This document shows positions 88 to 6,199 of a DNA stretch of 6,199 bases, in pieces; the stretch's first letter is position 1, and each line of letters opens with the position of its first letter. The notes beneath the pieces were generated by a model. That model was not told the origin of the DNA and did not search any database. It saw only the letters and a list, made by a program, of their open reading frames with translations. The DNA comes from a virus (lineage: Duplodnaviria > Heunggongvirae > Uroviricota > Caudoviricetes). The stretch is taken from the IMG/VR virus record IMGVR_UViG_2681813316_000020. One strand, written 5' to 3'. Made by a program: the position numbers and the translations under genes.

Positions 88-417
88 ATGCGTAAAGTTT
101 GTGCCGCCATTTTGTCCGCAGCCATTTGTCTGGCCGTATCCGGTGCGCCTGCATGGGCGTCTGAACATCAGTCCACGCTGAGCGCGGGGTATCTTCATGC
201 CCGGACGAACGTTCCCGGCAGTGATGATCTGAACGGGATTAACGTGAAATACCGTTATGAGTTTACGGACACACTGGGGCTGGTGACGTCATTCAGCTAT
301 GCAGGAGACAAGAATCGCCAGCTTACCCGTTACAGCGATACCCGCTGGCATGAAGATTCCGTGCGTAACCGCTGGTTCAGCGTGATGGCGGGGCCGTCTG
401 TGCGCGTGAATGAATAA
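88..417 (+). pseudogene. lom: Lom/Ail/OmpX-family outer-membrane protein, 3'-truncated remnant (109 codons)
   Basis: GAGAGG Shine-Dalgarno at 77-82, five nt before the ATG at 88. N-terminal signal peptide MRKVCAAILSAAICLAVSGAPAWA. Translation resembles phage lambda Lom (GINVKYRYE..., SVMAGP motifs) as I remember it, but stops at 109 aa where family members are about 170-206 aa, so the 8-strand barrel cannot be complete. Position before stf matches lambda gene order. Confidence 0.7.
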
Positions 418-485
418 AAGGAATTGTCCAGCTCAGTAGTGCAACCAACAGCGCATCTGAAACGCTTGCCGCGACACCGAAAGCA

Positions 486-1721
486 GTGAAAGCAGCTAAT
501 GATAATGCGAATGGTCGGGTACCTTCTGCCCGTAAGGTGAATGGTAAGGCGCTTTCAGCGGATATAACACTGACGCCGAAAGATATTGGTACGCTTAACT
601 CAACAACAATGTTATTCAGCGGTGGTGCTGGTTGGTTCAAATTAGCAACGGTAACCATGCCACAGGCGAGTTCTGTTGTTTCAATTACGTTGATTGGTGG
701 CGCGGGATTTAACGTGGGGTCACCTCAACAGGCAGGTATATCTGAACTTGTTTTGCGTGCAGGTAATGGTAATCCGAAGGGGATTACTGGTGCTTTATGG
801 CAGCGCACATCGACAGGGTTTACAAATTTTGCCTGGGTCAATACATCTGGTGATACTTACGATATTTACGTTGCAATCGGAAATTATGCGACTGGTGTAA
901 ATATTCAATGGGATTATACCAGTAATGCCAGCGTGACGATTCATACGTCACCAGCATATTCAGCTAATAAGCCGGAAGGGTTAACGGACGGTACAGTTTA
1001 TTCACTCTATACGCCATCAGAGCAGTTTTATCCGCCTGGCGCACCAATCCCGTGGCCATCAGATACCGTTCCGTCTGGCTATGCCCTGATGCAGGGGCAG
1101 ACTTTTGACAAATCTGCATACCCGAAACTTGCAGCCGCTTATCCGTCAGGCGTGATCCCTGATATGCGTGGCTGGACGATTAAGGGCAAACCCGCCAGTG
1201 GTCGTGCCGTATTGTCTCAGGAACAGGACGGCATTAAATCGCACACCCACAGCGCCAGCGCATCCAGTACGGATTTGGGGACGAAAAACACATCGTCGTT
1301 TGATTACGGAACCAAATCCACGAATAACACCGGGGCGCATACCCATAGTATTAGCGGGACTGCAAATAGTGCCGGTGCGCACCAACACAAGAGTTCCGGT
1401 GCATTTGGTGGCACGAACACGAGCATTTTCCCTAATGGTTATACCGCGATTTCAAATCTAAGCGCGGGGATTATGAGCACAACAAGCGGTAGTGGCCAGA
1501 CTCGTAATGCAGGGAAGACATCATCAGATGGTGCTCATACCCACTCGCTGTCCGGCACTGCTGCAAGCGCAGGCGCACATGCACATACTGTCGGTATTGG
1601 TGCTCATACGCACTCCGTTGCGATTGGTTCACATGGACACACCATCACCGTTAACGCTGCTGGTAACGCGGAAAACACCGTCAAAAACATCGCATTTAAC
1701 TATATTGTGAGGCTTGCATAA
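486..1721 (+). CDS. stf: Phage side tail fibre protein Stf, C-terminal portion (N-terminally truncated; reading frame open from 414 with no upstream start)
   Basis: Translation carries the conserved [21 protein letters not shown] motif just upstream of the GTG at 486 (in frame from 420). It also has the tail-collar segment [65 protein letters not shown], repeated HxH motifs, and the C-terminal end [22 protein letters not shown], all matching lambda Stf as I remember it. The only in-frame starts are GTG 486 and ATG 609, so this is a fragment of a normally much longer fibre gene. Confidence 0.85.
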
Positions 1722-2305
1722 TGGCATTCAGAATGAGTGAACAACCACAGACCATAAAAATTTATAATCTGTTGGCCGGAACTAATGAATTTATTGGTGA
1801 AGGTGACGCATATATTCCGCCTCATACAGGTCTGCCAGCAAACAGTACCGATATTGCACCGCCAGATATTCCGGCAGGCTTCGTGGCTGTTTTCAACAGT
1901 GATGAGGCATCGTGGCATCTTGTTGAAGACCATCGGGGTAAAACAGTTTATGACGTGGCATCAGGGGACGCGTTATTTATTTCTGAACTCGGCTCATTAC
2001 CGGAAAATGTTACCTGGTTATCCCCGGAAGGGGAGTTTCAGAAGTGGAACGGCACAGACTGGGTGAAGGATACGGAAGCAGAAAAACTGTTCCGGATCCG
2101 GGAGGCGGAAGAAACAAAAAACAGCCTGATGCAGGTAGCCAGTGAGCATATAGCGCCGCTTCAGGATGCTGTAGATCTGGAAATCGCAACGGAGGAAGAA
2201 ACCTCATTGCTGGAAGCCTGGAAAAAATATCGGGTGTTGCTGAACCGTGTTGATACATCAACTGCACCTGATATTGAGTGGCCTACGAACCCTGTCAGGG
2301 AGTAA
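1721..2305 (+). CDS. tfa: Tail fibre assembly protein (Tfa chaperone), apparently intact, 194 aa
   Basis: Translation [54 protein letters not shown]... is near-identical to lambda Tfa as I remember it. Its ATG overlaps the stf stop (TAATG at 1719-1723), the classic stf-tfa arrangement. Confidence 0.9.
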
Positions 2306-2319
2306 TCATTGGGATTATG

Positions 2320-2352
2320 CCGCAGCACGTCTTAAGCAAGAACGTGCTGCGG
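2320..2352. terminator. Strong hairpin between convergent tfa and methyltransferase genes; possible bidirectional terminator
   Basis: Seen in sequence: perfect 10-bp stem CCGCAGCACG (2320-2329) / CGTGCTGCGG (2343-2352) with a 13-nt loop. A T6 run follows on the plus strand only after an 8-nt gap (2363-2368), so the terminator role is inferred rather than canonical. Confidence 0.4.
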
Positions 2353-2359
2353 TTGGATG

Positions 2360-3028
2360 CTATTTTTTCCCTGAAGCGGAAAACATTACTACAGTACCTT
2401 GAACCTTGGTTTTAACATTCTCGAAATGCTCTGAGAGTATATGTGTTAAGCCTTCTTCGGAATCTTTTGTGTTTGAAAAGATGCCTTTCTGATTGTAAAT
2501 GCGCATCAGTTTTTGACCGAAGCTATTGTGCACAACTCCATCGCCAAGAATTGTGGCTCCGTATAGAGTTCCATCGTCAGTTAAGGCCTGCGCCGCATTG
2601 CGTATTACACAGCTTTTTGTAGATATATTTCCAGGCAGGCAGTGAAGAAGGTAAAACATGGAAATGGAATCAAATTGACCATGTAACGCCGCGGGATAAG
2701 GTTCAAAAACATCATGGCTAATTTTATGTTTAATTTTTGATTCCCCAGCCCTTGTAGATGCCGCGTTCAGGCTAGCTTCGTTCAAATCCATTAAAGATAT
2801 CAGACTACTCTCAGGTACGTGAGTAAGGTAAAACCCAGTTCCAACACCAATATCCAGATGGTTGTTACCTAAATGTTCCAGAAAGTGTGGAAGAAGGTGT
2901 TCCTTTGTAGGACATCCCCATGCAAGCCGATTTGATACTCCCAAAACCCACCAGTCATAAAGCTTTAGGGTAAGTGGTGTGTAAATTTTAGCCCCATCAT
3001 CTGTGTTTTTTTTCATTAATTTCACCAT
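2360..3028 (-). CDS. ybcY: Class I SAM-dependent methyltransferase (222 aa; possible true start at the second Met, 3014-3016)
   Basis: Translation contains the glycine-rich SAM-binding motif I LDIGVGTGF, an acidic post-I residue (LMDLNEA) and a motif II-like FDSISMFYLLHC. The gene symbol is assigned by synteny only (tfa - methyltransferase - tfaX - appY - ompT as in the E. coli K-12 DLP12 right arm), not by sequence recall. The first ATG has no obvious SD; the second Met is preceded by GGTGA. Confidence 0.75.
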   Translation of the reverse strand: MVKLMKKNTDDGAKIYTPLTLKLYDWWVLGVSNRLAWGCPTKEHLLPHFLEHLGNNHLDIGVGTGFYLTHVPESSLISLMDLNEASLNAASTRAGESKIKHKISHDVFEPYPAALHGQFDSISMFYLLHCLPGNISTKSCVIRNAAQALTDDGTLYGATILGDGVVHNSFGQKLMRIYNQKGIFSNTKDSEEGLTHILSEHFENVKTKVQGTVVMFSASGKK

Positions 3029-3084
3029 GTTATAGTTTTATTTGTGAATTAAATCAATTATGGCAATGAATTACAAGGGGTTAA

Positions 3085-3345
3085 ATGCTGCCGCAGCATA
3101 GCGATATTGAAATAGCCTGGTATGCTTCAATACAGCAGGAGCCGAATAGCTGGAAGACCGTCACCACACAGTTCTACATCCAGGAATTCAGTGAGTATAT
3201 TGCGCCACTGCAGGATGCTGTAGATCTGGAAATCGCAACGGAGGAAGAAAGATCGTTGCTGGAAGCCTGAAAAAAGTATCGGGTGCTGCTAAACCGTGTG
3301 GACACTTCCGTAGCACCAGATATCGAGTGGCTTATTCAACCATAA
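3085..3345 (+). pseudogene. tfaX: Tail fibre assembly protein C-terminal remnant interrupted by an in-frame TGA (3268-3270)
   Basis: Bases 3190-3345 are a direct repeat of the tfa 3' end (2141-2305), with a run of about 40 identical nt at 3211-3250 versus 2161-2200. The translation ...[40 protein letters not shown]... continues in the same frame after the TGA; the corresponding tfa codon is TGG (Trp, 2219-2221). The N-terminal 35 codons are unrelated to the tfa at 1721. Symbol by synteny with K-12. Confidence 0.7.
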
Positions 3346-3891
3346 TAAACAGTATGTATATCATAGGTTATTAATTGTGAGTTTTTTCGGTGTGTTATTT
3401 GTTTGTTTGATGTTATGCTTTTGCGCCCCAAAAGGTTGTTTAGATGTATTTTATCAATTGATTTTCAATATCGTTTAATAAAGAAAAATTAAGCAAGCTG
3501 GATGTTGGTTTTTTGTTAATTGAATGGTTCTAATAATGTTTTTTTTACTGTTGTTGAATGTGACTTGATAAGAAATGCAAGTAAAAATGATACTCTTTTT
3601 ATTTTAAATTCAAACGGTTGACATATATATAGCAAGAGGTTTCAGGTGCGTTGTAGTGAGTTTATGTTAATAAAAAGTATAGTAAGCGTTGAAAAATGTA
3701 ACTTTGAAATACGTTAGAATAAAAAACAATATACATATAATAATTTAATCTTAAATGAAATTTATTAAAATTTGCAAACTATAGTTTTGTGTATAAAAAT
3801 ATAAATGCACATCATCCTGATTATGATTGTGTATTTAATTGGTTGTTATTTGACTGCTATCAACTTGTTTTAATTTTATGATAGGTGCAAG
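3346..3891 (+). promoter_or_regulatory. Very AT-rich upstream/leader region of appY (promoter and probable nucleoid-protein silencing region)
   Basis: About 550 bp non-coding and strongly AT-rich by eye (roughly a quarter to a third GC), with many A/T tracts. It contains a consensus -35 hexamer TTGACA (3618-3623) but no well-spaced -10 that I can pair with it. appY is known to be H-NS repressed and ArcA/RpoS controlled (established knowledge); exact sites are not resolved here. Confidence 0.4.
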
Positions 3892-4641
3892 ATGGATTAT
3901 GTTTGCTCCGTAGTTTTCATCTGTCAATCATTTGATTTAATTATAAACAGGAGAGTTATCTCGTTCAAAAAAAATTCATTGTTTATTGTAAGCGACAAAA
4001 TTAGAAGGGAGTTACCAGTATGCCCCTCTAAACTAAGAATTGTTGATATAGATAAGAAAACATGTTTATCCTTTTTTATCGACGTGAATAATGAGCTGCC
4101 TGGCAAATTTACTCTTGATAAGAATGGCTATATTGCTGAAGAGGAACCTCCATTATCGCTTGTTTTTTCTCTGTTTGAAGGGATTAAAATAGCAGACTCA
4201 TACTCCCTTTGGTTAAAAGAAAGACTATGTATATCCTTACTTGCCATGTTCAAAAAACGCGAAAGTGTAAATTCTTTTATACTAACAAATATAAATACAT
4301 TCACCTGTAAAATTACTGGAATAATCAGTTTTAATATTGAGCGACAATGGCATTTAAAAGATATTGCGGAATTGATTTATACGAGTGAAAGTTTAATAAA
4401 AAAAAGATTAAGGGATGAAGGAACGTCATTTACTGAAATATTGAGAGATACTAGGATGAGGTATGCAAAAAAACTCATAACTTCAAACTCTTATTCTATC
4501 AATGTCGTAGCCCAGAAATGTGGCTATAACAGTACTTCATATTTCATATGTGCATTTAAAGATTATTATGGTGTCACGCCATCTCATTATTTTGAGAAAA
4601 TAATCGGCGTCACAGATGGAATAAACAAAACAATTGACTGA
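3892..4641 (+). CDS. appY: AraC/XylS-family transcriptional activator AppY (249 aa)
   Basis: Translation [27 protein letters not shown]... matches E. coli AppY as I remember it, with a C-terminal AraC-type HTH region (..[29 protein letters not shown]..). Extremely AT-rich coding sequence. Synteny with ompT as in E. coli K-12. Confidence 0.9.
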
Positions 4642-4890: not shown

Positions 4891-5844
4891 TTAAAATGTG
4901 TACTTAAGACCAGCAGTAGTGATGAAGTTATAGTTTTCTATACCTGCTCCATTTTTGCTGTAGTCTGAAGTGTTATTATTGTGATCATAAAGTGAAGTAT
5001 TACCTTTTTTATTCGTAACCCGATTCCATGCGCCTTCAACATAAACTTTTGCGTTAGGTGTGACGTAATAACCTGCATTGACTGCAACAGAATAGTAATT
5101 TTGGTCTTTGACCTTACTGCGATAAGTGATTCTTTTTCCCGGGTCATAGTGTTCATCGTTATCAGATGATTCCACCCAGCCGCTGTATTTAAATGTGCCA
5201 CCGAGTTCAAAATCTTCATAACGATAACTTCCAGTCAAGCCAATGTAGGGCATTTTAAAACGTTGTTTGTAGCCGATTGCCCTTTCTCCATTCGGGAAGG
5301 AGCCGATATCATCTCTGAATCCCTCCTCAGAACTGTAGATATAGGAACCACCTCTGGCTGTAAAGCTATAACGGCTTTCCTGATATCCGGCCATGAGTCC
5401 CAGGCGGTAATTGGGTTCGTTGAGGAGCCAGCCTTTGATATTCAGATCAAATTCGTTGGCATAATTGAGTTGTGTATCAGGGTGTCTACTTTCATCCGTC
5501 CAGGTTCCGGGGTTACTGGAATCCATCCAGTCCTGATCGACCATATTGCCACCTCGGCTGCCGAGAGTTGTCCAGCCAGCAGCCCCGATAGATATCTGGG
5601 GCATCAAATCCCAATTAATTGCACCTTTAATAATTGCAGCGTTATTGAATTTCCAGTCGAGTTGACTGACTTTTCGGCCTCCTTCTTCGGCTAGATAAAC
5701 ACGCTCTTTTGTTTTTCCGCTCAGAGTTCCAAGACTAATGTCCGCATTTATGTTGTCAGGAGTAAACGATAAAGTCTCGGTAGAAGCAAAAGAGCTGATC
5801 GCAATAGGGGTTGTCAGGAATATTCCCAGAAGTTTCGCCCGCAT
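4891..5844 (-). CDS. ompT: Outer-membrane protease OmpT (omptin, protease VII), 317 aa with signal peptide
   Basis: Translation MRAKLLGI.LTTPIAISSFASTETLSFTPDNINADISLGTLSGKTKERVYLAEEGGRKVSQLDWKF...AGLKYTF matches E. coli OmpT as I remember it. GGAG Shine-Dalgarno 7 nt upstream of the ATG (minus strand). Confidence 0.95.
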   Translation of the reverse strand: MRAKLLGIFLTTPIAISSFASTETLSFTPDNINADISLGTLSGKTKERVYLAEEGGRKVSQLDWKFNNAAIIKGAINWDLMPQISIGAAGWTTLGSRGGNMVDQDWMDSSNPGTWTDESRHPDTQLNYANEFDLNIKGWLLNEPNYRLGLMAGYQESRYSFTARGGSYIYSSEEGFRDDIGSFPNGERAIGYKQRFKMPYIGLTGSYRYEDFELGGTFKYSGWVESSDNDEHYDPGKRITYRSKVKDQNYYSVAVNAGYYVTPNAKVYVEGAWNRVTNKKGNTSLYDHNNNTSDYSKNGAGIENYNFITTAGLKYTF

Positions 5845-6106
5845 AAAAGTTCTCCATTCAATCGTTTTAATGATTGAATATGTATTTTTTATATCTAACT
5901 TAATGAGTCAATTACATATTGCTCCACTGTTTATATTTTGTTTAGTATTGAATGATTATCACAATGCGCTATCTGTTTTTGGTTTAATTATCTGTTATTG
6001 TTTCATATTGCGGTTTTACTGTGTGGTTTTTTTATGCTTTTGTGGTGCTTTTATCTATTTGAGTGCCATGCCTTTAGAGGCATATAAGCGAAAATAGCAT
6101 GAGGTT
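5845..6106 (-). promoter_or_regulatory. ompT 5' leader/promoter region, AT-rich, bounded upstream by the IS3 insertion
   Basis: Non-coding AT-rich region immediately upstream of the ompT start (minus strand). Promoter elements are not resolved by eye; the region ends at the IS3 terminus at 6107. Confidence 0.4.
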
Positions 6107-6199
6107 TGATCCTACCCACGTAATATGGACACAGGCCTAAGCGAGGTTCTGGTTTTCAAATTGTTCCGGACTGAGGCCGCCACACCAACTGTGCCGCCG
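6107..6199 (-). mobile_element. IS3 insertion sequence, right-end inverted repeat and adjacent interior (partial; element continues beyond the window)
   Basis: 6107 onward reads TGATCCTACCCACGTAATATGGACACAGGCCTAAGCGAGG..., which matches the reverse complement of the IS3 right terminus as I remember it (IS3-family TGATC... end). The minus-strand translation downstream is the IS3 transposase C-terminus. Confidence 0.8.
6137..6199 (-). CDS. insF: IS3 transposase OrfB (InsF) C-terminal end, partial (5' part outside the window)
   Basis: Minus-strand translation from the window edge reads ...RRHSWCGGLSPEQFENQNLA then stop (TAG = plus-strand CTA at 6137-6139). This matches the C-terminus of IS3 OrfB as I remember it. 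Confidence 0.75.
   Translation of the reverse strand, partial: RRHSWCGGLSPEQFENQNLA

Follow-up and report, generated by a model that had tools for sequence, protein, structure and literature searches.

Organization of the ompT locus

The DNA analyzed here, called the window in the following, is a stretch of 6,199 nucleotides that corresponds to the whole draft contig CYBQ01000073.1 (6199 bp) of assembly GCA_001284265.1. It contains the gene of the omptin protease OmpT on the minus strand in a context of K-12 type, where appY follows ompT at a distance of 249 bp downstream. On the right the window terminates within the insertion sequence IS3. The features of ompT, of its upstream region and of the IS3 end are listed below.

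4891–5844, minus strand: ompT, coding for a 317-aa omptin outer-membrane protease (open reading frame and its translation; PF01278 Omptin on the identical product; annotated as ompT by RefSeq on near-identical loci)
5845–6106, minus strand: retained upstream region of ompT, 262 nt, AT-rich, of K-12/envY type (many genomes carry the uninterrupted envY-ompT spacer, to which it is 99.6% identical)
5884–5911, minus strand: promoter-like hexamers TTGACT-16-AAAAAT, predicted by consensus scan, the probable core promoter of ompT
5928–5944, plus strand, opposite to ompT: PhoP box TGTTTA-N5-TGTTTA, TGTTTATATTTTGTTTA (the window has this one exact match, against a chance expectation of 0.01)
6104–6106, no strand: GTT, the triplet flanking the insertion sequence in the comparison of occupied and empty sites, expected to be the 3-bp target duplication if the insertion was simple
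6107–6199, minus strand: 93 nt of the IS3 right end (93/93 identity to IS3 copies; aligned to a full-length copy and to the K-12 IS3)
6107–6145, no strand: right terminal inverted repeat (IRR) of IS3, 39 nt, beginning with TGATCC (identical to the 2001–2039 arm of the full-length copy)
6137–6199, minus strand: last 20 codons and TAG stop of the IS3 transposase (orfB part), translated as RRHSWCGGLSPEQFENQNLA followed by the stop
6158–6188, minus strand: outward promoter of IS3 as proposed by Charlier et al. 1982, TTGGTG (6188–6183) and CAATTT (6163–6158) with a 19-nt spacer (read directly from the sequence; hexamers as given in PMC12095673)

As ompT occupies 4891–5844 on the minus strand, the 262 nucleotides from 5845 to 6106 separate its ATG from IS3, in agreement with the approximately 260 bp estimated in an earlier sequence-only reading of the window. 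A PhoP box on the reverse strand was found by mutagenesis to be required for the induction of ompT (low Mg2+/PhoP; bioRxiv 10.1101/2020.02.28.965145), and the box in the window fits this reverse-strand site, whose mutation abolished induction. The consensus promoter scan returned one site against 1.6 expected in shuffles, so that the scan by itself does not speak for function. A 220-nt upstream segment drove a working ompT-lacZ fusion (PMC2588501). The PhoP box, the promoter-like hexamers and this reporter segment are all intact inside the retained 262 nt, and the box and the hexamers are at least 160 bp away from IS3. A scan for sites resembling intrinsic terminators between IS3 and ompT found none.

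A different kind of change upstream of ompT is present in the pig strain EC100 (NZ_CP182308.1, locus 3001–3060), where the upstream sequence is native for 56 bp and then passes into a truncated PAAR/Rhs gene. This rearrangement removes the region of the PhoP box.

On the left, the window opens in lambdoid prophage DNA, at the gpJ-lom junction. The truncated product of lom (88–417) is cut after codon 109 (…VRVNE, then stop) and the gene is joined directly to the middle of a side tail-fibre gene, with the break near 415–420; relative to strain M25631H this join (window 88–500) represents a deletion of approximately 2 kb. Inside the tail-fibre-assembly ORF (1721–2305) a full-length match to the Rfam family RF02111 ‘IS009’ was obtained (2064–2262, plus strand, 222.7 bits with a gathering threshold of 117) which, despite its name, does not resemble an insertion sequence here. 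Between the tail-fibre genes and appY lies an intact gene for a 222-aa class I SAM-dependent methyltransferase (2360–3028, minus strand), the counterpart of which carries a frameshift in the closest complete genome.

Identity and orientation of the IS3 end

IS3 of E. coli is a 1258-bp element of the IS3 family with orfA and orfB, a programmed −1 frameshift and a DDE (rve) domain. The full-length copy in NZ_CP025892.1 (ETEC strain 503025; 1258 bp, locus positions 2001–3258) served as reference. It possesses imperfect 39-nt terminal inverted repeats at locus positions 2001–2039 and 3220–3258, and its transposase carries the programmed frameshift. Comparison with this copy identifies the tail of the window as the end of IS3 on the side of the transposase stop codon, and the RefSeq CDS ‘IS3-like element IS3 family transposase, programmed frameshift’ of the reference ends at the equivalent base. 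Since 6107–6199 adjoins the transposase stop codon on the minus strand, it represents the right end (IRR), reading toward ompT on the strand of ompT.

A search of 28 Gb of sequence matched 6107–6199 to IS3 copies at 93 of 93 positions (E = 2e-40), with 1644 records at an identity of at least 99%. Over the 20 codons of the transposase C-terminus in the window there is no difference from the annotated IS3 transposase, and the metagenome contig k141_36035, which carries the same junction, adds 45 more identical nucleotides. The sequence-only reading had placed the right inverted repeat of IS3 at 6107 with the transposase pointing toward ompT on the same strand. Both statements are borne out, the first by the full identity and the matching IRR arm and the second by the minus-strand translation of 6137–6199; a spurious match, which the same reading had named as an objection, is dispelled by the search result. 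The element is a known insertion sequence, and its sequence is present in many other genomes.

The 39-nt IRR and the transposase C-terminus are common to the window, to K-12 and to other IS3 copies. What distinguishes the copy in the window is its location and, relative to the K-12 IS3 (92 of 93 positions identical), a single mismatch at 6151. On the transposase strand this is C in the window versus A in K-12, giving Asn versus Lys near the C-terminus. The allele is common among IS3 copies, as the 1644 records indicate, and it falls within the terminal 50 bp of IS3, a region reported to dampen outward transcription.

Insertion point and empty sites

E. coli C and the genome GCA_013007315.1 represent empty sites. 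Both read through the site without interruption (...GCATGAGGTTTATCCTCAATTAC...), which is the comparison with strains lacking the insertion that the sequence-only reading had called for, and GCA_013007315.1 also has the same tail-fibre-assembly allele as the window. Alignment with these genomes places the break of the occupied site at ...CATGAGGTT(T)/GATCC, i.e. ...GAGGTT(T)/GATCC, where the slash marks the break. It is ambiguous by one T because the first T of IS3 coincides with a native T.

Two possible promoter elements at the junction were considered and rejected. A hybrid promoter would have its −35 element in the IRR and its −10 element in the flank; the consensus scan detected no such site spanning the junction. 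An extended −10-like motif noticed by eye in the flank (TGCTATTTT, minus strand, approximately 6098–6090) also occurs in the empty sites and is thus not created by the insertion sequence.

IS3 duplicates 3 bp of its target upon insertion. If the insertion was simple, GTT at 6104–6106 would be the duplicated triplet, and the far junction is predicted to consist of the left end of IS3 (…CTATTGCTGGGTAAGATCA) and then GTT-TATCCTCAATTACTATG on the envY side. The IS3 copy in the K-12 prophage DLP12 (locus 3233–4491) has unmatched flanking triplets, ATC on the left and ACC on the right, so that the 3-bp rule is taken here from established knowledge. These flanks suggest that the DLP12 copy may have been involved in recombination or deletion since its insertion.

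The junction on the ompT side was found in 0 of 5,426 complete E. coli genomes, where the best whole-window matches all end at 6113, and exact-pattern scans of the GTDB species representatives, IMG/VR and the JGI metagenomes did not return it. For the predicted far junction a synthetic query gave no spanning match in the 5,426 complete genomes, and gapped-pattern scans of sequence databases for the predicted left-end junction gave no match. Among the contigs matched via the OmpT protein, the longest ones listed all show the native envY arrangement. The insertion is rare and lineage-restricted. The site between envY and ompT is previously unrecorded but unremarkable, an ordinary IS polymorphism.

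Position of the attachment site and possible rearrangement

In the empty-site genomes envY is located 513 bp upstream of ompT. The remnant of the attachment site, a 3′ fragment comprising the last 45 nt of the tRNA-Arg gene argU, lies approximately 425–469 bp upstream of ompT in these genomes, about 160 bp beyond the insertion point of IS3. In the window no tRNA or att fragment was found, and in this respect the sequence-only reading was correct in reporting none between ompT and the insertion sequence. Its further suggestion, that the missing fragment is a sign of a rearranged prophage boundary, does not hold: as the argU fragment lies beyond the insertion point, its absence from this interval is expected and uninformative with regard to rearrangement.

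IS3 may nevertheless mark a larger event, in which IS3-IS3 recombination or another IS-mediated deletion or inversion on the far side, e.g. of envY-ybcH-nfrA-nfrB, has joined the upstream region of ompT through IS3 to unrelated DNA. We regard this as unlikely. It is compatible with the empty searches for the far side of the element (GTDB representatives, IMG/VR, JGI metagenomes and the 5,426 complete genomes). In ETEC 503025 an IS3 that matches the 93 nt of the window at 100% in its right end sits in the same orientation inside ISEc1 just beyond nfrB, approximately 8 kb from the argU att site, which makes directly repeated IS3 pairs in this neighbourhood realistic; two copies of this kind could recombine, with loss of envY-nfrB. 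The DLP12 copy with its unmatched flanks further indicates that IS3 copies in prophage remnants do get rearranged. Set against these points, positive evidence for a rearrangement is lacking at this site, the position of the att fragment accounts for its absence, and for an insertion sequence simple insertion is the more frequent outcome.

Possible effects on ompT expression

According to PMC6854850, ompT expression varies up to 32-fold from one pathotype to another, a variation attributed to sequences located more than 150 bp upstream of the gene, and the envY context correlates with higher expression; the results of Thomassin 2012, Brannon 2013 and Desloges 2019 (EHEC versus EPEC/UPEC) are taken as summarised there. 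This natural variation of the distal promoter consists in alternative genomic contexts, whereas in the window it is an insertion sequence that intervenes and the first 262 bp are of K-12 type.

The insertion could lower ompT expression if distal activating sequences, or transcription on the envY side, were cut off from the promoter, with an ‘EPEC-like’ low-OmpT phenotype as the outcome, a consequence that we consider rather improbable. The correlations just mentioned point in this direction, as does the fact that IS3 shifts everything beyond −262 by approximately 1.26 kb. In addition, the last 50 bp of IS3 cut outward expression approximately 1.9-fold (PMC12095673), so that transcription passing outward through the element could be dampened. 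On the other side stand the 220-nt segment, which was enough for a working fusion (PMC2588501), and the stretch from −150 to −262, which is of K-12 type and kept at 99.6% identity; moreover, the published correlations leave the responsible element unmapped.

The opposite effect is on record for IS3 elsewhere. According to Charlier 1982, as cited in PMC12095673, the right end of IS3 carries an outward promoter, and the element has served as a mobile promoter. In the IS3 insertion upstream of argE (Charlier, Piette & Glansdorff 1982) the right end likewise faces a gene on the same strand, and the hexamers TTGGTG and CAATTT are present here as well. The two cases differ in that ompT keeps its own intact promoter and lies approximately 300 bp from the hexamers.

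Applied to the window, outward transcription from the right end would cross the 262-nt spacer and substantially raise ompT expression in a partly PhoP-independent manner. The orientation of the element is the one required, a terminator-like site is absent from the spacer, and the proposed hexamers in the window are accompanied by a signature TTTAAT-15-TACAAT at 100–126 nt from the IS3 end, which falls just past the window and can be read in the metagenome contig k141_36035. In PMC12095673 the right end of IS3 had the highest probability (0.23) of gaining a promoter by mutation, and the 6151 allele of the window differs from the K-12 IS3 within the repressing terminal 50 bp. However, the hexamers do not closely resemble a canonical promoter (PMC12095673), and in the reporter assay of the same study no promoter activity was detectable for the wild-type right end, which had been chosen for precisely this reason. 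Promoters were detectable there only within approximately 150 bp of the reporter, while ompT is more than 300 bp away from the signals. The 6151 allele, moreover, is common. A substantial increase in ompT expression by this route appears quite improbable to us. If it did occur, the lineage would gain protease activity against host antimicrobial peptides.

Insertion sequences upstream of flhDC or bgl relieve the silencing of AT-rich regulatory DNA. The situation at ompT is similar in that the element lies a few hundred bp upstream of the promoter and in AT-rich DNA, the retained 262-nt region having a GC content of 23–36%. It differs in that there is no sign that ompT is silenced from beyond −262.

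Recurrence of the junction and contig ends

The junction recurs in two further contigs with the same layout, namely CYEI01000057.1 (6147 bp) of a sister draft assembly, which contains 67 nt of IS3, and the ENA metagenome contig k141_36035 (ERZ27269966, assembled with MEGAHIT). The latter holds 138 nt of IS3 without a difference from the full-length copy, which is the longest stretch at this site across the three contigs (the others having 93 and 67 nt). A full-text literature search for the accession numbers returned no paper. At 6061, in the distal upstream region of ompT, the window has a G where both other occupied-site contigs and both empty-site genomes have an A, i.e. a private SNP.

All three contigs break inside IS3 at a depth that depends on the assembly. 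IS3 is presumably present in multiple copies in these genomes, and the window probably stops after 93 nt of the element for the reason that such a multi-copy repeat blocked the assembler. As a draft contig broken at a repeat can simply end inside an insertion sequence, the right end of the window is probably not a biological boundary. The same probably holds for the left end. The lom break near 415–420 is a repeat boundary as well, since contigs of several unrelated draft assemblies stop at exactly this position.

That the insertion persists in three samples distinguished by SNPs is compatible with neutrality within a clone and likewise with selection. In the latter case the IS3 end would provide PhoP-independent read-through, or would remove distal silencing, and the constitutively raised OmpT level would be kept by selection for resistance to antimicrobial peptides. 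This would explain the recurrence in two isolates and one metagenome; we hold it to be very improbable. OmpT is known to degrade host antimicrobial peptides such as LL-37.

An assembly artefact, in which unrelated reads were fused into a chimeric contig end, is suggested by the location of the junction at the end of a draft contig; this possibility is practically negligible, given the identical breakpoint in three assemblies from different samples with SNP differences elsewhere (e.g. at 6061), a retained IS3 length that varies from assembly to assembly as expected of contig breaks at a repeat, and a break exactly at the canonical IS3 terminus TGATC.

Interpretation

We consider it likely that the window records an ordinary IS3 transposition in a rare E. 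coli lineage, and that the insertion, a polymorphism close to neutral, affects ompT at most modestly. Most probably IS3 transposed into ...GAGGTT/TATCC..., with its right end and transposase pointing toward ompT; the element would then be of full length and flanked by GTT on both sides. As the core promoter and the PhoP box are untouched, ompT should still be transcribed from its own promoter and remain under the regulation of PhoP.

Two routes to a modest effect may be envisaged for such a simple insertion. Weak outward transcription could start from the right end of IS3, or the sequences beyond −262 (att fragment, envY) could make themselves felt by having moved 1.26 kb further off. The weak or latent outward signals of IS3, taken together with the differences between strains in distal sequences, make an effect on expression, as envisaged in the sequence-only reading, plausible at a modest level, and the displaced sequences could matter more than assumed.

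The OmpT level varies widely between E. coli pathotypes, owing to differences in upstream sequence. If the insertion changed the level of OmpT, it would represent a natural, IS-driven case of this variation with the empty-site relatives as controls. The sole real value of the insertion is that of a natural test of distal promoter effects on ompT.
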